The position numbers and the translations under genes are program-made. The notes beneath the pieces were generated by a model. That model made no database searches, was not told where the DNA came from, and was given only the letters and a program-made list of their open reading frames with translations. A stretch of DNA of 61,937 nt, counting the filler. It is 6 parts of 6 records of this genome, joined end to end, with 100 filler letters (N's around TTAATTAATTAA, not from the genome) between each part and the next. Parts side by side here need not be neighbours in the genome. Positions count along the whole stretch, not along the records: positions 42,327 to 51,255 come from SRR31156797_3950; 5 more parts are not named here. One strand, given 5' to 3'. Shown one piece after another: positions 7,068-54,561 of the stretch (its first letter is position 1; each line of letters opens with the position of its first letter).

Positions 7068-7167
7068 NNNNNNNNNNNNNNNNNNNNNNNNNNNNNNNNN
7101 NNNNNNNNNNNTTAATTAATTAANNNNNNNNNNNNNNNNNNNNNNNNNNNNNNNNNNNNNNNNNNNN
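7068..7167. other. Artificial contig spacer (N + TTAATTAATTAA + N)
   Basis: 100-nt linker with stops in all frames. Confidence 0.98.
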
Positions 7168-42326: not shown

Positions 42327-42410
42327 GCAAACCTCTTTCCCTACAAGGATTCCAAGGGTCAACCGGCCGCAGCCGGAACATCTTCTGTCGAGTATTCGAT
42401 GTGATTTCAT
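42327..42410 (-). CDS. Start of a gene running off the contig (CxxC-containing)
   Basis: GGAGG RBS then MKSHRILDRRCSGCGRLTLGILVGKEVC; not in ORF track. Confidence 0.45.
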
Positions 42411-42590
42411 GCCGACCTCCCCTTTCTTGACCTTGGGCCTGGATCACTGGTTTATTTAACCGTTGCCCTCAGTTCCGGTACTGGAACAAATCGTTTCAAC
42501 TCCTAGTTGTGTCATCGGTTCTTTCGCCCGAAAACTTCACCGCACCGGTTAACCCTTTAACCATGTCATTCACGAAACGAACAATTTCAT

Positions 42591-42658
42591 TTGACATTTG
42601 ATTTAATATCTGGCTATCGTATTTTTACGACATTGTCGACAATCGTCTGACGATTGTC
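42591..42658 (+). promoter_or_regulatory. sigma70 promoter with overlapping palindromic GntR-type operators
   Basis: TTGACA at 42591, TATCGT 18 nt later; ATTGTCGACAAT (42632-42643) and GACAATCGTC-T-GACGATTGTC (42638-42658). Confidence 0.7.
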
Positions 42659-42707
42659 TTTAAAAGCAGCACGGCTGACCAATGAATAATTCATTCAATT
42701 CAAAAAA

Positions 42708-43382
42708 GTGAACACGACCATGACTCAAATCAAGACCCATAATCTCAGTGAAGATATCGCTCAACATATTGGTGAAAAGATTATTCAACTTGAAATCAAG
42801 CCCGGCGAAAGAATCCTTGAGGCAAAGATTGCCGAAGAGCTGGGGGTCAGCAGAAGCCCGGTACGGGAAGCATTCCGGATACTGGAACGCTACCGCCTGG
42901 TGGAACTCATCCCCAGAAAAGGCGTTAAAGCCACTGAAATCACGGAGTTTTACATAAGTTGTCTCTACGATATCCTGAAAGTCAACTTTGGGTTGATGGC
43001 AAGCCTGGCAGTAAAAAAAGCCGATGACGGGCAGCGAAAAAAGGTAAAAGAGATGCTGCTGCAGATCGAATCACACGCCCGGAGAGGTAATGTCCTTGAC
43101 TATTACAGCGGCATATTTGAGTTCGCGGCCATTGGGATGGCAGCCGCCCAAAACCCTCTCCTGGAACAAATGCTGATGGATTTATGGCCGAGCATCAGAA
43201 GGATACAATTTGCTTCCCTCAGCATCAGGTCGGAAAGATTAAAGGAAAACGGCGCTTATTTTAAAAAGATGATCCGCTACCTGGAGGAAAACAATCCGGG
43301 CATGACCGAGAAGATCGTAAGGGAATATGCAGAGAACGAAAAACAATTCGCAATGAGCATTATCAGAAAGGGACTCATATGA
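42708..43382 (+). CDS. GntR/FadR family regulator (FCD domain)
   Basis: PGERILE..IAEELGVSRSPVREA HTH; NPLL. Confidence 0.93.
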   Translation: MNTTMTQIKTHNLSEDIAQHIGEKIIQLEIKPGERILEAKIAEELGVSRSPVREAFRILERYRLVELIPRKGVKATEITEFYISCLYDILKVNFGLMASLAVKKADDGQRKKVKEMLLQIESHARRGNVLDYYSGIFEFAAIGMAAAQNPLLEQMLMDLWPSIRRIQFASLSIRSERLKENGAYFKKMIRYLEENNPGMTEKIVREYAENEKQFAMSIIRKGLI

Positions 43383-44674
43383 CTAAATATAAAGACCGGG
43401 AATATGATGCAATCGTTGTGGGAACAGGGCCGGGTGGAGCAACGGTCGCCAAGGAGCTTACCCATGGGAACAGATCCGTTCTAATGCTCGAATGGGGCAA
43501 TAATGAACCGGTGAACGGCACCCTGGCCCAGGCCATACGCAATCTCGGAATACCAGGCAAAAGCGCTCTGTTCACCAATGAACTGCTGACAATGGTGCGG
43601 GGAATCACAACCGGGGGAAGTTCCATCTATTACTATGGTACGGCCTTTTATCCGCCGGTCGGGATGCTGAAAAAATATGGTATCCGAATCGAGGATGAAA
43701 TCGAAGAAGTAAACAATGAACTACCGATCGCTCTCCTGTCTGACAGGCTGATGGGCCCCATGGCGAAACGAATCATGAACAGTGCCCGGGAACTGGGCTA
43801 TGACTGGCAGAAAATGCCCAAGTTTTTAGACCAGGAGAAATGCAGTCCGGAATGCTGGAAATGCGGATATGGATGTCCCCATGGAGCGAAATGGACGGCC
43901 AGGAATTATGTTGAACAGGCCCGGAAAAAGGGCGCGACCCTGATCAATGGCGCAAAGGTGACAACGGTTTTAACGGACAATGGAAAAGCCCGGGGGGTTG
44001 TGTTCAGGCATCATGGAAAAACCCGCAGGGCTTATGCCGGGCAGGTGGTCCTGGCGGCCGGCGGCATCGGGTCGCCGCTCATTTTAAGGACATTGGGGTT
44101 TCCCAATGCCGGGCGGGATTTCTTTTATGATCCGTTGATCGCGGTCATGGGCACGGTACCGGATATGACGGGGGGAAAAGAAATTCCCATGGCTTCCGCC
44201 ATCCACATGGAGGATGAGGGGTATGTCATGTCGGATATGACGCTTCCCCCGGCCCTGTATGGAATTCTGACCGCCGAGGTGGGCCGGATGGACCAGTTGT
44301 TGAACCATCCCGGAGCGTTAACCATCATGATAAAGGCAAAGGACAGTCTGGGCGGTTATTTGTCCGGGTCTGGCGGGGTGCGCAAACGGCTCTCCGATAC
44401 GGACAAACAGAAACTGTCAAGGGGCTATGAACGGGCCAAAGAGATTCTCAGGAACGCCGGGGCCAGGCAGGTTTTCAAAAGCTGTTTCCTGGCGGCCCAT
44501 CCGGGCGGTACCGTAAAAATCAATGAACTGGTCGATTCCAATCTTGAAACAGATATTAAAAACCTTTTTGTGTGCGATTGTTCCGTCATTCCGGAAGCAT
44601 GGGGCTTGCCGCCGACATATACCCTTTTGTGCCTGGGCAAGCGGTTGGCAAAACATATGGACAAATCATCATGA
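43379..44674 (+). CDS. GMC-family FAD oxidoreductase
   Basis: VVGTGPGG, GGSS, C..C..GC..GAKW, LAAGGIGSP, AHPGGT, LFVCDCS. Confidence 0.88.
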   Translation: MTKYKDREYDAIVVGTGPGGATVAKELTHGNRSVLMLEWGNNEPVNGTLAQAIRNLGIPGKSALFTNELLTMVRGITTGGSSIYYYGTAFYPPVGMLKKYGIRIEDEIEEVNNELPIALLSDRLMGPMAKRIMNSARELGYDWQKMPKFLDQEKCSPECWKCGYGCPHGAKWTARNYVEQARKKGATLINGAKVTTVLTDNGKARGVVFRHHGKTRRAYAGQVVLAAGGIGSPLILRTLGFPNAGRDFFYDPLIAVMGTVPDMTGGKEIPMASAIHMEDEGYVMSDMTLPPALYGILTAEVGRMDQLLNHPGALTIMIKAKDSLGGYLSGSGGVRKRLSDTDKQKLSRGYERAKEILRNAGARQVFKSCFLAAHPGGTVKINELVDSNLETDIKNLFVCDCSVIPEAWGLPPTYTLLCLGKRLAKHMDKSS

Positions 44675-44827
44675 GTCGAAAATCAGCAAAACACAGCTTC
44701 CGGTTCAGAAGGAGAGCGGTCAACTAATTCAAGCCCGGGGCTTGCCCCCCTGCGCCTGCATTGTTTGTTTTTTGGGAAGAGACCTGCTAGTTATTTTTTT
44801 AAAAAACTATTAAAGGAGATTTTTCCA

Positions 44828-46267
44828 ATGTCTGGCCTGCAATTTAAAAATGCTTCATTTGCTTTTTGGGCAACCGAAGTCATGAAGACACGGGAAGCCA
44901 GAACGATTCTGGATTCCACAGTTACGGATTTTTTTGACAAATGGGGCGAAAAAGGTGACATCAAATCTGAATTTGCAAAGCATGCGAAACGGATTATTCA
45001 AAGGAGGCTGGCCCACTCGGAAAACAGACACAACGACCAGGAACTGAAGGATCTTTTGCAAAATCCGGAAGTAATGAAATACATTGGAAAAAAGTTGCCG
45101 GTGTCAATGAACAGCCTGGTGGAAATTGTGCATCTGATGGCTGTTACACTTGAAACCTACCCCGAAGAGAAACAGCTGGAGTTCATAAATGATATTTTTG
45201 CTTCAATCAACGCAGATAAACTCGCCGAGATACTGACCTCCCTGGCCGGAACAATTGATGCCCTTCACAGGAACAATCCGACGATTATCGCAGATAACCT
45301 GGTTCCGGTCCTGGGACAAGTTTTAGAAAATATCGATTTTGGGGAGATAAAGACGCTCTCTGAAAATTCAAGAAAAGAACTGCAAGCCCTTATTACCAGA
45401 ACCAACGATCTTTTATTCGAATTTCCCTCAAAGCTGATTCTGATTCTCTCTTTCATCCCCGGGGCCTCAAATACGCTGCTGTTTTTTATTGAAGATATGA
45501 TCAAAAGGTTCAATGCACTGCCGGCTGACATTTTAACAGATCTGCTGATTTCATTTTTTAAAGACATTGATGAAAAAACCGTTGGCAAGCTTATAAATAA
45601 CCTGGCCGAGCTCATACGACAGGTTCATACGGGGAGCGCTCTGATCGGCGATCCCGGGTCTCCCAGGTTCTCGACCGAGTTTGCCCGTAAAACCGGGACG
45701 ATTTTAAATGGGATGGACCCGGAACTGGTTTTCACAGCTGCCAATGCCCTGGTGGACGGCAAAGAGGCTTTGCTGAAATCAATGTATGACGCCGCCTGGG
45801 AAAATCCCCGATTTACGGAACTTGCCCTTAAGCAGGCAATGGCTGTCAGGAATTCAAACACCAGGGTGACACAGCGGAAAATTGAACTGCTGGACGAACT
45901 CGGGGAGGAAGATGCAGCGGGTGCAATAGAAACCGCGTCTTCAGAATGGAATGCCGACGCGTTTGCCGAATTAGTAAACTCGGGCTGCAGCCTGGCCAAC
46001 CGCCTCCATGGCGATTCACCGGATCTTATAAAGAAATTTTTTACTGAATTTGTCGACACACTCGACCTCCATGAAATTGAGGAAACCGTTACCTGGGTCT
46101 CCCGCGATCTCACGAAGACATTTAAACCGGTTATACAGACCGTTTTGCCCATTGTTGTCAAAGACCTGATCGAATGCCTGTCATCGGAATACAACGGCAA
46201 TGGAGAACAGATAACGGCCATGCGCAAAACCCTGCGCCGGTTTATAATGGATGAGGAAATCTGCTGA
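44828..46267 (+). CDS. Unknown alpha-helical protein with threefold internal repeat
   Basis: AAGGAG RBS before ATG 44828; coupled to next gene by TGATG. Confidence 0.75.
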   Translation: MSGLQFKNASFAFWATEVMKTREARTILDSTVTDFFDKWGEKGDIKSEFAKHAKRIIQRRLAHSENRHNDQELKDLLQNPEVMKYIGKKLPVSMNSLVEIVHLMAVTLETYPEEKQLEFINDIFASINADKLAEILTSLAGTIDALHRNNPTIIADNLVPVLGQVLENIDFGEIKTLSENSRKELQALITRTNDLLFEFPSKLILILSFIPGASNTLLFFIEDMIKRFNALPADILTDLLISFFKDIDEKTVGKLINNLAELIRQVHTGSALIGDPGSPRFSTEFARKTGTILNGMDPELVFTAANALVDGKEALLKSMYDAAWENPRFTELALKQAMAVRNSNTRVTQRKIELLDELGEEDAAGAIETASSEWNADAFAELVNSGCSLANRLHGDSPDLIKKFFTEFVDTLDLHEIEETVTWVSRDLTKTFKPVIQTVLPIVVKDLIECLSSEYNGNGEQITAMRKTLRRFIMDEEIC

Positions 46268-47421
46268 TGAAAAATATATTCCGGGAGGCCGCCACAACCC
46301 TTGATGTTCCAAGCGTTCAGGAGTGGAAAGAAAACAAAGGGAAGATTGTCGGATATACCTGTTCATTCATGCCGGTTGAACCCTTTTACGCCGCGGGTAT
46401 CCTCCCCCTGCGTCTCCGGGGGATAAACGCCGCAAGCATGGAAATAGCAGACTCATACTATGGCCCTTTTGTCTGCAGTTTCCCCAAAGCCCTGCTCCAG
46501 GTCGCGGGCACCGGGAAATATGCGTTCCTGGATGGGGTGGTCCTGTCAAACGGATGCGATACCCTGCGCAGGCTCGATGACTGCTGGCGAAAGATGGGGC
46601 AGGATATAAAAGGCTCCCTTCCCCCCTGGCATTATTACCTTGATGTGCCCCATAAACCCGGCGGCCATGCCTTTGACTGGTATGTCAACCAGATCAGAAA
46701 AATGATGACGGCCATCGAAAAACAGTTTGATGTAACCATTACCGACGAGGGCCTCCGCCACGCCATAAAGGAACAGAACAAATTACGCAGACTGCTTTGG
46801 GAACTTGAGAAGCTGCGGCGGAAAGAGGTTTTAACAGTCACCGGATCGGAGGCCTATGCAGCCATCATCGCCGGTACGGTGATGCCAAGGGATATTTATG
46901 CCGGGCACCTTGCTGATTTACTGGAGGATATTCAAAACAGGACAGCCGATGTTGCCCTTAACAGGAAAAGACTCTTCTTAAGCGGCAGTGTGTGTGATGA
47001 TTTTGAACTTATCGATCTGATTGAACAATCAAATGCTGTTGTTGCGGGTGAAAATCTCTGCTTCGGCGTTCGCGATGACGGGGACATGGTCAGTGAAACA
47101 GGCGACCCTGTCGCCGCCCTTGCCGCCAGATATCTGTCCGGTTCGGTCTGCCCCCGGATGATGGGCTGGTATCAGTCAAGGTCGGCCGGGATCATGGACA
47201 GAATAAAAAGCATCAATGCCGACGGCGTGATCCTGCAGAATATCCGGTTCTGCGATCTCCATGGTTCTGAAAACGGTCTTTTCGAGCGCGATCTTGGGAA
47301 AAACGACCTTCCCTCTCTACGAATCGAAAGGGAATATGGTCCTTTGACTGAAAGCGGCAGGCTGAAAATGAGGGTGGATGCCTTTATTGAGCAACTCTCA
47401 TCAGGCAACAAAACAAAATAA
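46267..47421 (+). CDS. 2-hydroxyacyl-CoA dehydratase / benzoyl-CoA reductase subunit (HgdB/BcrC-like)
   Basis: GYTCSFMP.E, CSFPK, CDTLRR, CPRM, FCDLH, RVDAFIE. Confidence 0.88.
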   Translation: MKNIFREAATTLDVPSVQEWKENKGKIVGYTCSFMPVEPFYAAGILPLRLRGINAASMEIADSYYGPFVCSFPKALLQVAGTGKYAFLDGVVLSNGCDTLRRLDDCWRKMGQDIKGSLPPWHYYLDVPHKPGGHAFDWYVNQIRKMMTAIEKQFDVTITDEGLRHAIKEQNKLRRLLWELEKLRRKEVLTVTGSEAYAAIIAGTVMPRDIYAGHLADLLEDIQNRTADVALNRKRLFLSGSVCDDFELIDLIEQSNAVVAGENLCFGVRDDGDMVSETGDPVAALAARYLSGSVCPRMMGWYQSRSAGIMDRIKSINADGVILQNIRFCDLHGSENGLFERDLGKNDLPSLRIEREYGPLTESGRLKMRVDAFIEQLSSGNKTK

Positions 47422-47430
47422 AGGTGGCAC

Positions 47431-48834
47431 ATGAGACCGGAATTAAAAGAGTACAATCTGGACTGGCTTTTTGCATCAACGTTCAATATCTCAAAGCATC
47501 TGTGCAACGCGACCCCCAAAGAGCTTGAAGCCATGTTCAAATATATACCTTACGTAAGAGGACTTTTGGAGCCATTGCTGGCCACGGGTAAGCCTGCCAT
47601 GACATTCCTTGATTTCTTTGGGGATTACTACACCAACATCGTCGATGCAAAAAAAAATGGTAAAAAGGTTGTCATGACGACCTTCTGCTTTGATCCTTCC
47701 ATATTTTACGCTGTTGACAATGTTGTTCCGGTTACATTGGAGATCGGCACGGCCCTGACATCCATGCTCTGGAAACGGGGGTCAACCGATTTCATGGATT
47801 TTTGCACGGAGATCGGTTTTTCTGAAACCGGGTGCTCCTCCCAAAGGGGGGCCATGGGCGCATATCTTGCAGGCCTTGGCGCCGAAATCGACCTGGTGGC
47901 CCTGAACATGGGCGGGGTTTGCGACACCAATTCAAACGCCTATGCGTTCGCGGCTCAATATCTCAATGTCCCCTATTACGGGCTTGACTACCCGGCCAAC
48001 CTGACGGCGGAGGATGTGCAGGAATACCATCATAAAGATTACAGGGCCCTGATCAGATTTATAGAGGACCATACCGGGAGTAAATTTGACATTGACCGGC
48101 TCAGGGAAGTCCTGGAGGAAAAGAGGAAACAGGATGATTTAATGAACGAGCTGGAGGAGATGCAGCGCCTGGTGCCCAATCCGGTGCCGGGGATTTACCA
48201 TATTATGATCTACGCCGGGCGCTATATCTTTTCCGGGAAAAAGAAATATACAAAGATGCTGAGGGAAATGGTTGAAATCGTGCGCAACAATGCTGAAACG
48301 GGCCGCTCGGGACTGAAACAAGGGGTTGAGAAAAACAGGACCTTTCTTCTGTATATCGACAATTATTCCCTTGGCATATCAATGGTTGAATGGTTTGAGA
48401 AAAAAGGAATATCCCATATGGGCAATATTTTATCCCGTACATTCACGGAGACCGCGCCCTATACCACGGGAGTGCCCGGCACCACCTACCGCATCGATAC
48501 CAGCACCCTTGACACCATGATCGACACCCTGGCGGATATCAACGCAAGAATGCCCATGACCCGCACCATAAGGGGACCCTACGATGCGCCCAACATGTGG
48601 CTCGAGGACAGCATCTCCCTTGCAAAGTTCTATAATGCGGACAGCTGCATTTACAACGGCACACCGGGCTGCAGAAACACATGGTCAAACATCAAACTGA
48701 TGACACGGGATCTCGAAGCCCTGGGATATCCCACCCATATTACCTATGCAGACAGCTTTGACAGCCGGGTGGAGGCATGGGAAACCACTGAGAACCGGCT
48801 GGAAGAATTTTACAGCATCAGGGGGTTATTATGA
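47431..48834 (+). CDS. 2-hydroxyacyl-CoA dehydratase / benzoyl-CoA reductase subunit (HgdA/BcrB-like)
   Basis: CSSQRG, CDTN, FIEDHTG.KFD.DRL, GCRN, DSFDSR. Confidence 0.85.
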   Translation: MRPELKEYNLDWLFASTFNISKHLCNATPKELEAMFKYIPYVRGLLEPLLATGKPAMTFLDFFGDYYTNIVDAKKNGKKVVMTTFCFDPSIFYAVDNVVPVTLEIGTALTSMLWKRGSTDFMDFCTEIGFSETGCSSQRGAMGAYLAGLGAEIDLVALNMGGVCDTNSNAYAFAAQYLNVPYYGLDYPANLTAEDVQEYHHKDYRALIRFIEDHTGSKFDIDRLREVLEEKRKQDDLMNELEEMQRLVPNPVPGIYHIMIYAGRYIFSGKKKYTKMLREMVEIVRNNAETGRSGLKQGVEKNRTFLLYIDNYSLGISMVEWFEKKGISHMGNILSRTFTETAPYTTGVPGTTYRIDTSTLDTMIDTLADINARMPMTRTIRGPYDAPNMWLEDSISLAKFYNADSCIYNGTPGCRNTWSNIKLMTRDLEALGYPTHITYADSFDSRVEAWETTENRLEEFYSIRGLL

Positions 48835-49610
48835 GTATTGTTGCCGGATGCGACGTTGGGTCCCTGACCACCAAGGCCGTCATCATCAAAAACCGGAAAC
48901 TCATGGATTCCGCGATTATCAGGTCCGGTCCCAAACCGACGGAATCCGCAGTAAAAGTGATGGAACGGCTTTTTGAGAAAACAGAAATGTCTCAAAAAGA
49001 CATTGCATGTTGTGTCGGGACCGGGTACGGCCGTGAAAAAATCGCGTTTATCGACCATGCCGTCTCGGAGATCTCATGCCACGGGAAAGGGGCCCAATGG
49101 CTTGTTCCCACCGCCAGGACCATCATCGATATCGGGGGCCAGGATTGCAAGGTGATTAAACTGGATAAACAGGGCAACCTGCTGAAATTCGCCACCAATG
49201 ACAAATGCGCTTCCGGCACCGGCCGCTTCCTGGATGTGATGGCCAAGGTGATGAACATGGACGTTTCGGATCTTGGCAAACTGTCGGCAAAATCAAACGC
49301 CCCTGTCACCTTTGCTTCGGTCTGCACGGTCTGGGCCCAGGCCGATGTGATCAAGTTGATCAACTCCAGGCGTCCGGCGGAAGATATCTGCGCGGGCATC
49401 AATACCGCCATGGCCAACAGGGTTTCCATGCTGGCAAATACCCTGAAAATCGAAAACGATGTCTGCATCACCGGCGGCGTGGCGAAAAATGAGGGGGTCG
49501 TCAAGGCCCTGGGCAAAATCCTGGGGTGCAGAATAAAACGCATCAGAAGAACAGATCCCCAACTGACCGGCGCCGTGGGCGCCGCCCTGTTTGCCCGGGA
49601 AAGGCTGTAA
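48831..49610 (+). CDS. ASKHA ATP-dependent activase (HgdC/BcrA/BcrD family), copy 1
   Basis: GCDVGSLTTK, TGYGR, DIGGQD, NDKCASGTGRFL, SVCTVW, TGGVAKN. Confidence 0.93.
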   Translation: MSIVAGCDVGSLTTKAVIIKNRKLMDSAIIRSGPKPTESAVKVMERLFEKTEMSQKDIACCVGTGYGREKIAFIDHAVSEISCHGKGAQWLVPTARTIIDIGGQDCKVIKLDKQGNLLKFATNDKCASGTGRFLDVMAKVMNMDVSDLGKLSAKSNAPVTFASVCTVWAQADVIKLINSRRPAEDICAGINTAMANRVSMLANTLKIENDVCITGGVAKNEGVVKALGKILGCRIKRIRRTDPQLTGAVGAALFARERL

Positions 49611-49663
49611 GCCCGTGAAATGACCCGAACACCAATTTTGAACAAGAGAACCTGGAGACACCA

Positions 49664-50449
49664 ATGATAACAGCAGGCTGCGATGTGGGGTCCAGAACCG
49701 CAAAAGCGGTGATCCTTGAAAACAACAAAATAATTACAAGCGCGGTGATCCCGGCAAAACTGGATCCCGTCGAATCCGCGGAAAGCGTAATGGCGATCGC
49801 ACTGGAGCGGGCGGATCTTCCCTTGGATGGGATAAAAAGAATCGTCGGGACCGGATACGGCCAGCAGGAGATTCCATTTGCCCACACCTGTGAATCGGAG
49901 ATCGTCTGCCATGCCAGGGGCGCGTCCTGGAACATTCCCTCCGCCAGGATGATCGTCGATATCGGCGGCCAGGATTCAAAGGCAATCAAAATCGACAACA
50001 CCGGCAGGGTCATCCGCTATTCCTACAACGACAAGTGTGCCTCCGGAACAGGCCGGTTCCTTGAAATCATGGCAGACGCATTGAACGTTGAACTCGATGG
50101 GATGGGCGAATGCGGCAAGTCGTGGAAGGAAGAGATCCGCATCTCCAACCAGTGCGTGATCTTTGCGGAGACAGAGGTCGTTTCCCTGATAAATGAGGGC
50201 AAGGAGGTGGCGGATATCATAAACGCCCTTCACTGCTCCCTGGGCAAACGGGTGGCCTCCCAGGCAAGAAGCCTGATCATAGAAGAAGATGTGATCATGA
50301 CCGGCGGGGTCGCAAAAAACATCGGGGTCTTTGACGCACTGTCCCAGGGACTGGGGGTAGAGGTAAAAAGCCTCCGGGGCATCGATCCCCAAATCAACGG
50401 CGCCCTGGGTGCCGCATTGATCGCGGCGGCGGTGGCCAATCCCCTATGA
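49664..50449 (+). CDS. ASKHA ATP-dependent activase, copy 2
   Basis: GCDVGSRTAK, TGYG, DIGGQD, NDKCASGTGRFL, NQCVIFAE, TGGVAKN. Confidence 0.93.
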   Translation: MITAGCDVGSRTAKAVILENNKIITSAVIPAKLDPVESAESVMAIALERADLPLDGIKRIVGTGYGQQEIPFAHTCESEIVCHARGASWNIPSARMIVDIGGQDSKAIKIDNTGRVIRYSYNDKCASGTGRFLEIMADALNVELDGMGECGKSWKEEIRISNQCVIFAETEVVSLINEGKEVADIINALHCSLGKRVASQARSLIIEEDVIMTGGVAKNIGVFDALSQGLGVEVKSLRGIDPQINGALGAALIAAAVANPL

Positions 50450-51180
50450 AAATCTTCAATCAACTCATCGATGAGATAAAGGCCTATAAACACCATAAAC
50501 AAACGAGCAACCGATACCGGGAGTTCCAGGCAACGACCGCCATTAACTGGCCGGCCGCCGGCAAAAGGGATATCATCCTCATGCCTGATCTTGCCATGGA
50601 ATTGGGCAGTCCCGAAACCGCTTCCGTATCATTCATGGTATGGACCGGGGACGGGTCCCTCATCAAGGATCAAAGGATCACCCTCCTGGGGCCGGACCTT
50701 ACTGAAACATCGGATAAAAAATTGCCTTTCGGCAAGATTGTCATGGCAGGGGTCCAGGGGTTTAATGAAAACAACGCCTTTGACCGAAACAGGGAAATGT
50801 ATCTGAAGAAATTCGATCTGTCGTTAAAAGGCCATATGCTGAGATCCGCATCACACTACATGGCGGAATGGCACCGGATAAGTAAAGCCGCCATCACAAA
50901 CGGCTTTTCCTTTGACCGTCTGGGCAGCGCCCTGATCAACGCATATAAGAAAATCGATTATGTAAAATCGGTTGAGATCATTTTTGTCACATCATCGGAC
51001 AAGGATGTGAACGAATTGTATGACCTGGGCAAACGCTCGACCCGCATGATAAGCGCAATGTCCAAAATGGTGAATGAGATGAGCTATGACTGCTCGGAAT
51101 GTGAATATCAGGACCTGTGCGGAGAGGCCACGGAGCTTCGCAAGCTAAGGTCCGGATTGACTCAAAAAATCAGGAATTAA
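50446..51180 (+). CDS. Stand-alone acetyl-CoA synthase (CdhC/AcsB)-like domain protein
   Basis: ELGSP..S.SF, D.RITLLGPDL, LPFGKIV, RISK.A...GFSF..LG; C-terminal CSECEYQDLC. Confidence 0.7.
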   Translation: MKIFNQLIDEIKAYKHHKQTSNRYREFQATTAINWPAAGKRDIILMPDLAMELGSPETASVSFMVWTGDGSLIKDQRITLLGPDLTETSDKKLPFGKIVMAGVQGFNENNAFDRNREMYLKKFDLSLKGHMLRSASHYMAEWHRISKAAITNGFSFDRLGSALINAYKKIDYVKSVEIIFVTSSDKDVNELYDLGKRSTRMISAMSKMVNEMSYDCSECEYQDLCGEATELRKLRSGLTQKIRN

Positions 51181-51185
51181 TCCAT

Positions 51186-51255
51186 ATGCAGGAAAAACCG
51201 GTAATAATAGCGGTATGCGGAAAGGGAGGGGTCGGGAAAACCTGTATCAGCGCCC
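51186..51255 (+). CDS. CooC/AcsF-like (MinD-class) ATPase, 3' truncated
   Basis: IIAVCGKGGVGKT deviant Walker A; only 23 codons visible. Confidence 0.6.
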
Positions 51256-51355: not shown

Positions 51356-51385
51356 TTCGGGGTTCAAGTCCCTGATGGCGTACCA
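51356..51385 (+). tRNA. 3' end of a tRNA (possibly Lys)
   Basis: T arm CGGGG-TTCAAGT-CCCTG, ATGGCGT-A-CCA; terminator GCTCCTCA..TGGGGAGC-TTTTTT follows. Anticodon missing. Confidence 0.75.
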
Positions 51386-51516
51386 TTCGCTCCTCATTAT
51401 TGGGGAGCTTTTTTATTGTATGAACTTTATGAGGGATGCTTGTAGCATTTTAAGATGTGAGCGAGGGCAAGAGGGTGCGAGAGAGCGAGAGAAATGATTT
51501 ATGAATATCGAACATT

Positions 51517-51666: not shown

Positions 51667-52725
51667 TCACTGGTTTCTGGTCAATTCCTCGATCCACTCT
51701 TTATTTTCATTTAAAGCGCATCCACCTTTGCTTTCTTTAAGCAAATGGTGATTATCGCGGATCTTTTTCAGAAGAGGTGATCTAAGGGCTTCTTTCATAC
51801 TTGTCCCTGTCACATTCACATCCGAGAAAGGAGCGAAAGGACAAGCTTCTATGGCACCGGTGGAGCTGATGTGAAGGAACCCACGTCCGGAGGCCAGGCA
51901 GCCGCCGTATTTTTCTTCGTCACCCGGGAGGGGAACGATAAGCATATCCAGATCAAATTCTTTTGAGATAAGGTCTTCTTTCTGTTTATCCGAGATGCAT
52001 TGATCCATATCAGCATCACCCGAGGGGACGTATTCAATCAAAAAGGCCGCCCTACTGCCTTTGTCTTGTAGTTCCCTTAATAATCTAGAACTGACAACCT
52101 CATCGTAATTTTTGTTCGTCAGCGTAAAGGATGAGCCAAATAATAGAGTATTCTTATCCAACTTTTCGATCGCAGCCATGATCTTGTCGTACACACCTTC
52201 ACCCCGGCGATCGTCCGTGGTTTTTTTATTTCCTTCAAGGCTGACAATGGGGATCAGGTTCTTGGTATGTTTCAACTCATTCATAACAGTAGTATCTATC
52301 AATAATCCGTTTGTAAACATGACAAAAAGTGTCCCCGGATGCTCCTTTGGAATATCAAGGATCCCATCTTTAAGCAAGGGTTCTCCCCCGGCAATAAGAA
52401 TGATGGCAACACCCAATTCAACGGATTCATCGACTATACGCTTGATCTCTGAGATATCCATTTCGCCGCTTTTATCTCGTTGCTGATCACAGGCATAGCA
52501 ACCTTTGCACGTAAGATTGCAATCGTTCGTAATGCTCAGGATCAGGACCGGTGGCACGATCAGATCATCTTTTGCCAAAGCTGTCCGTACTTTTACCTGT
52601 TTTTTTATATTCGACCCAATTTCAAGAAAGGTCTTTAAATACGAAGGCCTTTTCAACAGAAACTTTTTGTTCTTAATCAGAGAAGCAGTAATTACCTTAT
52701 CAAATCGCTTGATTTCTTTGCTCAT
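51667..52725 (-). CDS. Radical SAM protein with SPASM/twitch-like C-terminus
   Basis: CNLTCKGC, GGEPL, FTNG, GCLASGRG.LHI...G.IEACPF. Confidence 0.92.
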   Translation of the reverse strand: MSKEIKRFDKVITASLIKNKKFLLKRPSYLKTFLEIGSNIKKQVKVRTALAKDDLIVPPVLILSITNDCNLTCKGCYACDQQRDKSGEMDISEIKRIVDESVELGVAIILIAGGEPLLKDGILDIPKEHPGTLFVMFTNGLLIDTTVMNELKHTKNLIPIVSLEGNKKTTDDRRGEGVYDKIMAAIEKLDKNTLLFGSSFTLTNKNYDEVVSSRLLRELQDKGSRAAFLIEYVPSGDADMDQCISDKQKEDLISKEFDLDMLIVPLPGDEEKYGGCLASGRGFLHISSTGAIEACPFAPFSDVNVTGTSMKEALRSPLLKKIRDNHHLLKESKGGCALNENKEWIEELTRNQ

Positions 52726-52854: not shown

Positions 52855-54561
52855 TTACTTCATCAATATCATTTTCTTAGTCGCTGTAAAGCTCCCTGTC
52901 TGCAAGCGATAGAAGTAGACACCCGAGCTGTAGTGTGCGGCATTCCAGATCAACTGATAACTGCCTGCCTGTTGGTATCCACTTGCCAGAGTTTCTACCA
53001 AGCGTCCCGTAATATCAAAGATCGTCAATTCAACGTCGCTGTTCGCTGACAGTTGATAGGAGATAGAAGTTATCGGATTAAAAGGATTCGGGTAGTTTTG
53101 CTCAAGCACGAAGGCTGAAGGAATAATGGGATCCCACGAAATATTCGTAGCGGTTCCTTCGGTTCCCATAACAGCCAAGGAGCTAAAGTGGATCACACCG
53201 GAGAAAATACGATTGAAGTTTTCATCAACGACAGTCTCCGTAATGCCGGTCCCGTCAAATACCAGGGTATCTCCACTTTCAATTGCAAAAAACAATCCCA
53301 GTGTTTCGGGATCGATACCAAGCTTATCAAGTAAACCGCGTTTATAGACCATGCCAACAACCAAGGGTGTCTCAAAATAATAGGGCTCCTGAATGGTATC
53401 ATTGACCATGACTGTGAAATCAACACCGGCCAGCATACCTTCATGTCCCCAGCCAACACTATCGCCGCGGATCTCGGCAAATTTCGGCAGTGAAATATGG
53501 ATCCTGATATCTTCTGTTAATGAACCAATAGGGAAATATACCTGACTGCCGTTCAGCACGTTCATCGGATGCGGCAAGCCACCCATGGTCCAGATCTCGC
53601 CTTCGGTCAGTTCGCGCATCACTGAATAGCCCTGTTGATTTGGACTGTCACGAGTAATAATTATATTGTTGAGGGAGTCATCACGTGTTGAATCCTGAAC
53701 GATCACGAGCGCACTTGCACTCATATCGCCCAATTCAGCTCGAACCACTGCATATCCGCTCGCCGTAACATCCAACAAACCATCCTGATCTATTGTGCCA
53801 ACGGCCATGCCTTCCAGACTCCAGGTAAAGGTCGTATCTATTTGCAGGCCGATGCTGTCGTTTTCCGCTTTTTCAAAAACCGTATATTGGACTTGATCAC
53901 CTACGGGTATAACCGTTTCATTAGGCATTAGAATAAAATCACAGTAATTTTCCGGTTCTTCAAGATTTCCCGCGGGAAATACACTTACATAGACCCAGGC
54001 CATCAGATCACCGACATAAACCTCGATCATGCCTTCACCGGAACGAGCTGCAATGAACTGTCCGCTGGTGCTGTCTAAAGTTCCCAGTGAATCGGGACGC
54101 AACTTCCACACGCCGACGGTATCGGTCTCAACTTTATTGGTATCGATATAAACGACAGAATATTGTAATGTGTCTCCGACAAACATCTCCATATCGCTTT
54201 GAACGATCTCAACGGCAGGTAAAAGAAATTCGGGTTCATCTGTTTCAATCGTTATCTCAATAGTATCGGTCAATTCATTCAATGTTGCGATCACAAGACC
54301 TGTACCCACATTCTTTGCAGTAAGCACGCCCTTGTTATTTACCGTTGCCAGTTGGTGCGGGTCAACAGCCCATGTTGCCGTTGTATCAAATTCATTTTCA
54401 TTTGAATCGACATAGACAGCTTCCATTTGAATCGTATCGCCTACGGTCATTTCAAGTTCATCCGGAACGATTTCCAGACTTTGTGCAAAAATGAGACCTG
54501 AAAATATCATTAATACAAGGCTTATCTTTACAGCTTGTAAATGCTTTAACATTCTAAACAT
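52855..54561 (-). CDS. Secreted Ig-like (Big_2) repeat protein with T9SS type-A/FlgD-like C-terminal domain
   Basis: Signal peptide; three Ig-like repeats; LEQNYPNPFNP...SSGVYFYRL...KKMILMK. Confidence 0.85.
   Translation of the reverse strand: MFRMLKHLQAVKISLVLMIFSGLIFAQSLEIVPDELEMTVGDTIQMEAVYVDSNENEFDTTATWAVDPHQLATVNNKGVLTAKNVGTGLVIATLNELTDTIEITIETDEPEFLLPAVEIVQSDMEMFVGDTLQYSVVYIDTNKVETDTVGVWKLRPDSLGTLDSTSGQFIAARSGEGMIEVYVGDLMAWVYVSVFPAGNLEEPENYCDFILMPNETVIPVGDQVQYTVFEKAENDSIGLQIDTTFTWSLEGMAVGTIDQDGLLDVTASGYAVVRAELGDMSASALVIVQDSTRDDSLNNIIITRDSPNQQGYSVMRELTEGEIWTMGGLPHPMNVLNGSQVYFPIGSLTEDIRIHISLPKFAEIRGDSVGWGHEGMLAGVDFTVMVNDTIQEPYYFETPLVVGMVYKRGLLDKLGIDPETLGLFFAIESGDTLVFDGTGITETVVDENFNRIFSGVIHFSSLAVMGTEGTATNISWDPIIPSAFVLEQNYPNPFNPITSISYQLSANSDVELTIFDITGRLVETLASGYQQAGSYQLIWNAAHYSSGVYFYRLQTGSFTATKKMILMK

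Follow-up and report, generated by a model that had tools for sequence, protein, structure and literature searches.

A predicted ATP-dependent iron-sulfur reductase operon with class I benzoyl-CoA reductase architecture and an acetyl-CoA synthase-derived partner in an uncultured relative of sulfate-reducing bacteria

ATP-driven benzoyl-CoA reductases and their dehydratase relatives carry out some of the lowest-potential chemistry in biology, and few substrates are known for what is a very large superfamily. Strict anaerobes use class II benzoyl-CoA reductases and facultative anaerobes class I enzymes, according to the available part of PMC5109826, and an earlier note on the DNA studied here had drawn the same contrast. 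For the class I enzyme BzdNOPQ, the available part of PMC11971306 describes an [8Fe-9S] double cubane that BzdN holds via six cysteine ligands; in BzdO, C95, C128, and C380 are the three ligands of a water-bearing active-site [4Fe-4S] cluster, Glu65 and His131 form an acid/base pair, and Tyr97 is the thioester-binding residue. Elsewhere in the superfamily, the described 2-hydroxyacyl-CoA dehydratases have one homodimeric activator, and the double-cubane protein, as described, is homodimeric, and so is its one reductase (PMC7317905, available part). Here we analyze a nine-gene operon at positions 42327 to 51255 of a 61.9-kb window, the whole stretch of DNA under study. The operon contig comes from an uncultured relative of sulfate reducers, and we consider it likely that it holds a complete operon for an undescribed ATP-dependent iron-sulfur reductase with class I benzoyl-CoA reductase architecture, acting probably on a CoA ester other than benzoyl-CoA.

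Six contigs make up the window, with five spacers between them (N-runs around TTAATTAATTAA, at positions 7112, 16141, 32015, 42271, and 51300), and features on different contigs are therefore not physically linked. The operon sits on a single 8.9-kb contig, with a GC content of 0.45 to 0.52 against 0.40 to 0.44 in the neighboring contigs. Open reading frame (ORF) calling and family scans of this contig gave nine genes, all on the plus strand and some of them overlapping, which bears out every item of the gene inventory in the earlier note:

42708 to 43382, plus strand: GntR-family regulator with an FCD ligand-binding domain, 224 amino acids (PF00392, 57.4 bits; PF07729, 44.4 bits)
43379 to 44674, plus strand: short GMC-like FAD protein, 431 amino acids (PF00732, 66.3 bits against a cut-off of 23; PF05199, 26.8 against 24.6)
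44828 to 46267, plus strand: U, an orphan of 479 amino acids from an ATG, with no Pfam or NCBIfam family (an alternative TTG start at 44765 would give 500 amino acids)
46267 to 47421, plus strand: S, small subunit of the HGD-D family, BzdN/BcrC type, 384 amino acids (PF06050, 269 bits)
47431 to 48834, plus strand: L, active-site subunit of the HGD-D family, 467 amino acids (PF06050, 156 bits)
48831 to 49610, plus strand: A1, activase-type ATPase of the BcrAD_BadFG family, 259 amino acids (TIGR00241, 245 bits)
49664 to 50449, plus strand: A2, activase-type ATPase of the BcrAD_BadFG family, 261 amino acids (TIGR00241, 224 bits)
50446 to 51180, plus strand: mini-ACS, a CdhC domain corresponding to the middle domain of acetyl-CoA synthase (ACS), 244 amino acids (PF03598, 42.9 bits against a cut-off of 24)
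51186 to 51255, plus strand: CooC-type P-loop ATPase, first 23 codons, starting MQEKPVIIAVCGKGGVGKT and including GKGGVGKT, cut by the contig end

The overlaps are of 4 nucleotides between the GntR and GMC genes, 1 between U and S, 4 between L and A1, and 4 between A2 and mini-ACS; U and S are translationally coupled. Scans of the contig for Rfam families and for tRNAs gave no match.

Placement of the catalytic subunits was based on curated model scores, alignments to PDB structures, and trees with in-genome controls. A PDB search with S gave BzdN (6e-33), MbdN (4e-30), HadC (3e-26), and the double-cubane protein (4e-19) as its nearest solved relatives. Its six cysteines (C32, C70, C97, C265, C295, and C329) are invariant in 29 of 29 orthologues and each faces a cysteine in the BzdN alignment, and their spacing (x37, x26, x167, x29, x33) fits ligand positions of the seven-cysteine double-cubane-protein motif given in the available part of PMC7317905. 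In the tree, S forms a clade of its own (SH-aLRT support, 100), apart both from the double-cubane proteins encoded in G001, the genome of a close relative described below, and from S', the small subunit of a second module present in some relatives.

L is very divergent. Its single-sequence PDB matches are HadB (5.4e-9) and MbdO (2e-3), and a profile of 26 orthologues matches the double-cubane protein at 6e-18, HadB at 6.7e-18, and BzdO at 1e-12. L has three cysteines (C135, C164, and C414) that all 37 of 37 sequences share, and in the profile alignment they fall on C95, C128, and C380 of BzdO. E104, also invariant, is aligned to the glutamate of HadB. The remaining active-site positions differ from the benzoyl-CoA enzyme: His131 of BzdO is replaced by an invariant Asn167, with D165 also invariant, and Tyr97 is replaced by Ser137.

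In line with the uncharacterized pathway of the earlier note, the subunits do not nest inside a characterized family, and every NCBIfam equivalog score falls far below its cut-off. Against the benzoyl-CoA reductase models the scores are 128 for BcrC (cut-off, 421), 117 for BzdN (454), 32 for BcrB (487), and 21 for BzdO (449), and the best activase score is 190 (380). The dehydratase models give 52 for HadB (750) and 123.5 for HadC (700). The best NCBIfam match of S is the double-cubane reductase model NF040772, with 169 against a cut-off of 350, on which two G001 proteins, serving as a positive control, pass with 497 and 438. A true aryl-CoA reductase is unlikely. The proteins form a separate, uncharacterized branch that combines class I architecture and the class I pattern of cluster ligands with a different active-site make-up.

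Both activases have the two cysteines that bridge a [4Fe-4S] cluster in activase dimers: C126 and C165 of A1 and C125 and C164 of A2, each pair invariant in 32 of 32 sequences. In a quick tree, the 32 rows of A1 lie on one side of a branch with SH-aLRT support of 92, A2 is compatible with one group, though weakly (support, 44), and the single activases that belong to second modules make up a clade of their own (support, 100). A1 and A2 are two old paralogues. The layout of two activases with two catalytic subunits, on which the earlier note had built its case, is real and ancient by family assignment, synteny, and the activase tree.

With aligned mini-ACS homologues as the query, a search that covered a single genome of each species returned 39 loci, nearly all in metagenome-assembled genomes (MAGs) of Desulfobacterota and two in MAGs of Actinomycetota. 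All nine genes stand in identical order in L001, from a Desulfobacteraceae MAG, and L002, from a Desulfobacterium sp. MAG, with amino acid identities to L001 from 81% (mini-ACS) up to 95% (L). In L002 the CooC gene encodes 257 amino acids (L002:10732-11505) and is followed by unrelated genes on the opposite strand, and an ATP-grasp gene lies upstream of the operon. The L002 operon thus ends after CooC, and the truncated ninth gene of the window is therefore the last gene of its operon, with nothing pathway related hidden past the contig end.

The order U-S-L-A1-A2-mini-ACS recurs in 31 of the 39 loci, a count that includes L033, which is only distantly similar, and L034 and L038, which have frame breaks. 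Four more loci (L011, L022, L025, and L028) are cut by contig ends and are consistent with the order, L032 is uninformative for it, and the exceptions are L006, L031, which has an IS91-type transposase before mini-ACS-CooC, and L030, which has a single-activase module. The gene order is not due to chance, being shared by L001 and L002 and, for the core, by 31 of the 39 loci. U lies directly upstream of S in 31 of 31 full loci, A1 and A2 are both retained in every full locus, and a CooC-type gene directly follows mini-ACS in 36 of the 39. The synteny search that the earlier note had called for has accordingly confirmed mini-ACS and CooC as companions of the quartet. The GMC gene, which the earlier note had counted among those companions, accompanies it in some loci and is facultative (9 of 39). 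As obligate companions of the branch, U, mini-ACS, and CooC are new.

Several variants of the locus were observed. L is tandem duplicated in nine loci (L010, L015, L016, L018, L024, L027, L029, L035, and L036) and triplicated in L033, each of these loci having one S and one U, which suggests that the extra copies are alternative substrate-binding subunits on one shared electron-delivery module. In 14 of the 39 loci, CooC is followed by a second HGD-D module, this one with a single activase (S', L', and A'):

L007 to L009, L012 to L014, L017, L019, L022, L023, L025, L026, L034, and L038: second-module loci

Identity of S', L', and A' to S, L, and A1 is about 30%, 24%, and 42%, and in this sub-branch the mini-ACS/CooC pair is flanked by two ATP-driven modules. 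L006 (2201-3805) and the metagenome locus L115 read GntR-GMC-mini-ACS-CooC, with no U, S, L, A1, or A2 in between; either these genes were deleted, or the GMC protein, mini-ACS, and CooC are able to work without the reductase core. The genomes that carry L002 (G001) and L001 (G002) have eight PF06050 matches each, and among those of G001 are the two proteins that pass the double-cubane equivalog cut-off and another pair, which resembles HadBC/BzdNO. These Desulfobacteraceae possess several systems of ATP-driven radical enzymes.

The branch is widespread in sediment and subsurface anaerobes: L homologues fall into 512 clusters at 90% identity, and their public names are all generic. One public sequencing run, from which this DNA may derive, has an 18.1-kb contig that contains the operon stretch whole, ends within 5 nucleotides of 51250, and extends about 9.3 kb farther on the GntR side; two others, X2 and X3, have only small parts of it, 90 to 95% alike. 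In a marine-sediment RNA library, 16 short contigs are 90 to 98% alike to the operon and cover GntR/GMC, GMC/U, U, S, and A1, two of them spanning gene junctions. These contigs hint weakly at transcription of the operon in relatives.

The mini-ACS profile aligns to residues 316 to 498, the middle domain, of Moorella ACS (1mjg_M, 1e-11). A stretch Y-D-C216-x2-C219-x5-C225 follows, with all three cysteines invariant in 36 of 36 sequences, and the protein ends 19 residues past C225. These three are its only conserved cysteines, and the C-terminal domain that carries the Ni-Ni site and the full set of A-cluster ligands is missing; accordingly distant are the NCBIfam scores, 32 to 43 against cut-offs of 356 to 809. 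In ACS itself, the [4Fe-4S] cluster of the A-cluster is bridged to nickel via Cys509 (PMC2707248, available part). Cys509 falls a few residues past the end of the mini-ACS alignment, and the Cx2Cx5C of mini-ACS may be a remnant of the first cysteines of the A-cluster, by position and not by alignment. The CooC of L002 has CooC1 (3kje, 7e-13) as its best PDB match, with the CxC metal motif aligned, and CxC is present in 27 of 27 strictly detected orthologues; the copy in the window has the P-loop GKGGVGKT and ends before CxC. No CO dehydrogenase (CODH) or full ACS was found in the contig or beside the L002 orthologue. Mini-ACS probably carries a metal cluster, installed by CooC, and would act at electron entry or in CoA handling.

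U was searched by several routes. A Pfam scan of 29 homologues at E<=1 gave scattered chance matches. The single-sequence fold has a mean predicted confidence (pLDDT) of 39.6, and the alignment-based AlphaFold2 model one of 79.8, with all helices. That model gave no fold match in Foldseek against the PDB (best E, 3.8) and single-helix matches alone in a wide VIA-align search (maximum Z, 5.4), and in the ESM Atlas U fell into unnamed clusters only. A profile search of 1.84 billion representatives puts the family at 438 representatives at E<=1e-3, 298 of them at 1e-30 or better; among the 150 matches listed, relatives are 241 to 529 amino acids long, and nothing points to a larger parent family. 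TDFGE, YPAK, and E..R..HTGS are its conserved polar motifs. The S-U complex prediction scored 0.00, with the partner fold uncertain and alignments not used, and weighs neither for nor against an interaction. The probable role of U is that of a stoichiometric subunit or of an assembly factor.

The earlier note had cast the GMC enzyme as an alcohol-oxidizing step of the pathway. Membership of the GMC family stands, and the pathway role is weak: the gene is present in 9 of the 39 mini-ACS-derived loci, and the relative nearest in structure is Fe-S bearing. H374, in an HxxGT stretch, is invariant in 9 of 9 sequences, and we take it to be the catalytic histidine. The protein also has a cysteine-rich motif, CSPECWKCGYGCP, with four cysteines that 8 of 9 orthologues retain. 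Among solved structures, the best relative of the GMC protein is the alpha subunit of FAD glucose dehydrogenase (6a2u_B/8hdd_A; E, 1e-6), aligned across this motif, which in the glucose dehydrogenase presumably binds an Fe-S cluster. Because the nearest solved relative is an Fe-S-bearing dehydrogenase that shares the cysteine-rich motif, an electron-transfer module fits the GMC protein at least as well as a pathway enzyme. A search of metagenome contigs from the GMC side kept 80 loci of 407 relatives, 55 of them with at least 1.5 kb downstream. In 26 of the 55, GMC is followed directly by U and then, up to the contig ends, by the remaining cluster genes, in 2 by other core genes, and in 27 by none. 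The contexts of these 27 are diverse, and no common alternative partner emerged from a scan of 40 of 82 ORFs, in which 3 of 12 loci shared a pyridoxal phosphate enzyme with an amino acid permease and the others varied. The Desulfobacterales sub-branch would have added this GMC-like FAD/Fe-S dehydrogenase and the GntR/FCD regulator, and the flavoprotein would be an optional module that feeds electrons or converts a precursor.

Two sites upstream of the GntR gene bear on regulation:

42591 to 42620, plus strand: promoter-like site, TTGACA, an 18-nucleotide spacer, and TATCGT, with 10 of 12 matches, the best and only such site of the contig
42626 to 42658, plus strand: candidate GntR operator, located downstream of the -10 box, in which the palindrome ATTGTCGACAAT overlaps a 10-nucleotide inverted repeat, GACAATCGTC/GACGATTGTC

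Position 42591, where the earlier note had begun the locus, is thus the start of TTGACA, the -35 hexamer. The arms of the inverted repeat (42638 to 42647 and 42649 to 42658) are 100% complementary, and in a three-way alignment with L001 and L002 the promoter is conserved and the palindrome block nearly invariant. The palindrome is a plausible candidate operator for self-repression, and the operon is probably self-repressed. FCD regulators usually bind carboxylates, and the regulator would sense a carboxylate effector. The regulators found with the Desulfobacterales sub-branch are of the GntR family; of 16 loci examined in the other sub-branch, 10 have a TetR gene immediately upstream of U. In practical terms, the FCD regulator, with its conserved operator, is a way into the pathway, which the ligand of the regulator should name.

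In the mechanism that we propose, a reduced donor would load the cluster of A1A2, ATP hydrolysis would drive an electron into the double cubane of S, and the electron would pass on to the open [4Fe-4S] cluster of L, which would reduce the bound substrate in a radical reaction. This substrate is probably an acyl- or aryl-CoA ester and, because His131 of BzdO is an invariant Asn and Tyr97 a Ser in L, would not be benzoyl-CoA. We infer the CoA ester from CoA-metabolism genes that flank distant relatives, the operon itself having none: in 16 such loci (91 of 146 ORFs scanned), acyl-CoA dehydrogenase genes occur at 7, genes of the ADP-forming CoA-ligase type at 3, and enoyl-CoA hydratase genes at 2.

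A number of observations weigh against this proposal. No CoA ligase, CoA transferase, ferredoxin, or downstream-pathway gene lies in the operon or beside the L002 orthologue; the earlier note had already reported the contig free of CoA ligase, ferredoxin, and ring-cleavage genes, and the flanks of L002 extend that result. The L profile is about equally near to three families, and the chemistry could be dehydration or the reduction of a small molecule. Glu65 of BzdO lies outside the aligned stretch, so that its match to E104 of L is extrapolated, to within one residue, and the cluster types in S, L, and the activases are read from cysteine patterns only. The companions are not universal: two genome loci, L024 and L029, are without CooC, and the GMC-mini-ACS-CooC set occurs without the quartet in the genome locus L006 and the metagenome locus L115. 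Two metagenome loci, L064 and L065, read GMC-U-S-L, with no activase, mini-ACS, or CooC detected within 9 kb downstream; the ATPases are encoded elsewhere in some organisms. The RNA-library contigs, finally, come from relatives and may be DNA carry-over.

Three other assignments of the core can be set against the reductase of a non-benzoyl CoA ester. The first is an enzyme of the 2-hydroxyacyl-CoA dehydratase type, in which one activating electron would start a ketyl-radical dehydration, the GMC protein would interconvert hydroxy and oxo acids, and the GntR/FCD regulator would sense the acid. HadB is both the best single-sequence PDB match of L (5.4e-9) and its best NCBIfam match (52 bits), E104 is aligned to the HadB glutamate, the carboxylate preference of FCD regulators would suit an acid effector, and three distant loci (L010, L015, and L031) have a D-2-hydroxyacid dehydrogenase gene close to the cluster. 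We nevertheless hold a dehydratase to be improbable. Two activase paralogues are conserved here where the dehydratases described in the available part of PMC7317905 have one homodimeric activator; all six invariant cysteines of S match BzdN, whereas HadC has no cysteine at the positions of C32 and C265; the Had scores, 52 against 750 and 123.5 against 700, are far under their cut-offs; and neither the contig nor the flanks of L002 have a CoA transferase gene.

Quite improbable, in our judgment, is a reductase like the double-cubane protein, acting on a small non-CoA substrate, for which the ACS-like protein and CooC would hint at a small carbon or nitrogen compound. That S finds its best NCBIfam match in the double-cubane reductase model (169 bits) and the L profile its best match in the double-cubane protein speaks for it, as do the lack of a CoA-activating gene in the operon and the usual service of ACS and CooC relatives in CO and acetyl chemistry. 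The 169 bits, however, are far under 350, where the true members in G001 score 497 and 438, and the clade of S is separate from those members. The operon also has two unlike subunits and two unlike ATPases, not the homodimer and single homodimeric reductase described in the available part of PMC7317905, and mini-ACS is without the Ni-Ni-site domain. A true class I reductase of benzoyl-CoA, or of a substituted aryl-CoA, in a strict anaerobe is very improbable indeed: the four-subunit layout and the nearness of S to BzdN (6e-33) and MbdN (4e-30) are outweighed by the four equivalog scores (128/421, 117/454, 32/487, and 21/449), by the exchange of His131 for an invariant Asn167 and of Tyr97 for Ser at positions whose roles are taken from the available part of PMC11971306, and by the lack of dienoyl-CoA hydratase and ring-hydrolase genes in the contig or at L002.

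Returning to the CoA-ester reductase, we can extend it to a joint model that is tentative and, taken whole, rather unlikely. It would define a six- or seven-component "archerase" class in which the S-L-A1-A2 core depends on an ACS-derived subunit, with a cluster that possibly contains Ni and is installed by CooC, and on the fold orphan U. The class would carry out the low-potential reduction of a nonaromatic CoA ester in sediment anaerobes, and in Desulfobacterales the GMC FAD/Fe-S dehydrogenase would couple the oxidation of a substrate directly to the reduction. Parts of the acetyl-CoA synthase machinery have been recruited into a wholly different setting here. The identity of the substrate would add a reaction to anaerobic carbon cycling, and the role of mini-ACS/CooC would reveal a new use for a nickel-chaperone-type ATPase.

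At the edges of the contig, one further gene is present:

42327 to 42409, minus strand: 5' end of a divergent gene beginning MKSHRILDRR, read from the sequence and cut by the contig start

The next contig has a lower GC content, and at 52855 to 54561 (minus strand) it encodes a Big_2 protein with a C-terminal sorting domain of the type IX secretion system (T9SS). The closest relatives of the operon contig are Desulfobacteraceae MAGs, unlike this T9SS neighbor, and the record or bin may mix organisms. On the same neighboring contig, unlinked to the operon, 51667 to 52725 (minus strand) encodes a radical SAM protein for which AhbD/NirJ-like heme-maturation models score best, at 97 bits against a cut-off of 500. 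Just after the spacer, 51357 to 51420 looks like the 3' end of a tRNA- or tmRNA-like gene (…GGTTCAAGTCCC…ACCA), and a T-run comes next; neither ARAGORN nor Rfam gives a match, probably because the gene is cut.

The full texts searched, a set that leaves most subscription journals outside, contain no description of a benzoyl-CoA-reductase-like module with a mini-ACS/CooC, U-like, or GMC partner. Compared with the known systems one by one, the operon resembles BzdNOPQ (8s02) and MbdNOPQ (9g87) in its two HGD-D subunits with two different BcrAD-type ATPases, in the six-cysteine double-cubane pattern of the small subunit, and in the three-cysteine open [4Fe-4S] site of the large one. It differs from them in its extra partners U, mini-ACS, and CooC, in having no aromatic-pathway genes, in the frequent duplication of L among relatives, in an Asn for the active-site His and a Ser for the thioester-binding Tyr, and in model scores far under the cut-offs. 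HadBC with HadI (3o3m) belongs to the same superfamily and shares the catalytic-subunit Glu and the three-cysteine site; here there are two activase paralogues and not one, a six-cysteine small subunit, and no CoA transferase. With the double-cubane cluster protein and its reductase, DCCP and DCCP-R (6eno and 7yyl), the operon has in common the six-cysteine pattern and spacing of S and ATP-driven electron delivery by an activase-type ATPase, whereas its S and L are heteromeric and not a homodimer, its ATPases are two paralogues, and its clade is separate.

The companions can be compared in the same way. Relative to AcsB/CdhC with a CooC/AcsF-type maturase, the ACS middle domain is present, the P-loop and CxC are kept, and the genes are adjacent; the Ni-Ni domain and genes for CODH, a corrinoid protein, and a methyltransferase are absent, and the pair is tied instead to a benzoyl-CoA-reductase-like module. 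The GMC protein shares with FAD glucose dehydrogenase (6a2u_B and 8hdd_A) the fold signatures of the family and the aligned cysteine-rich stretch, while at 431 amino acids it is a very distant relative that stands here without cytochrome or small-subunit genes.

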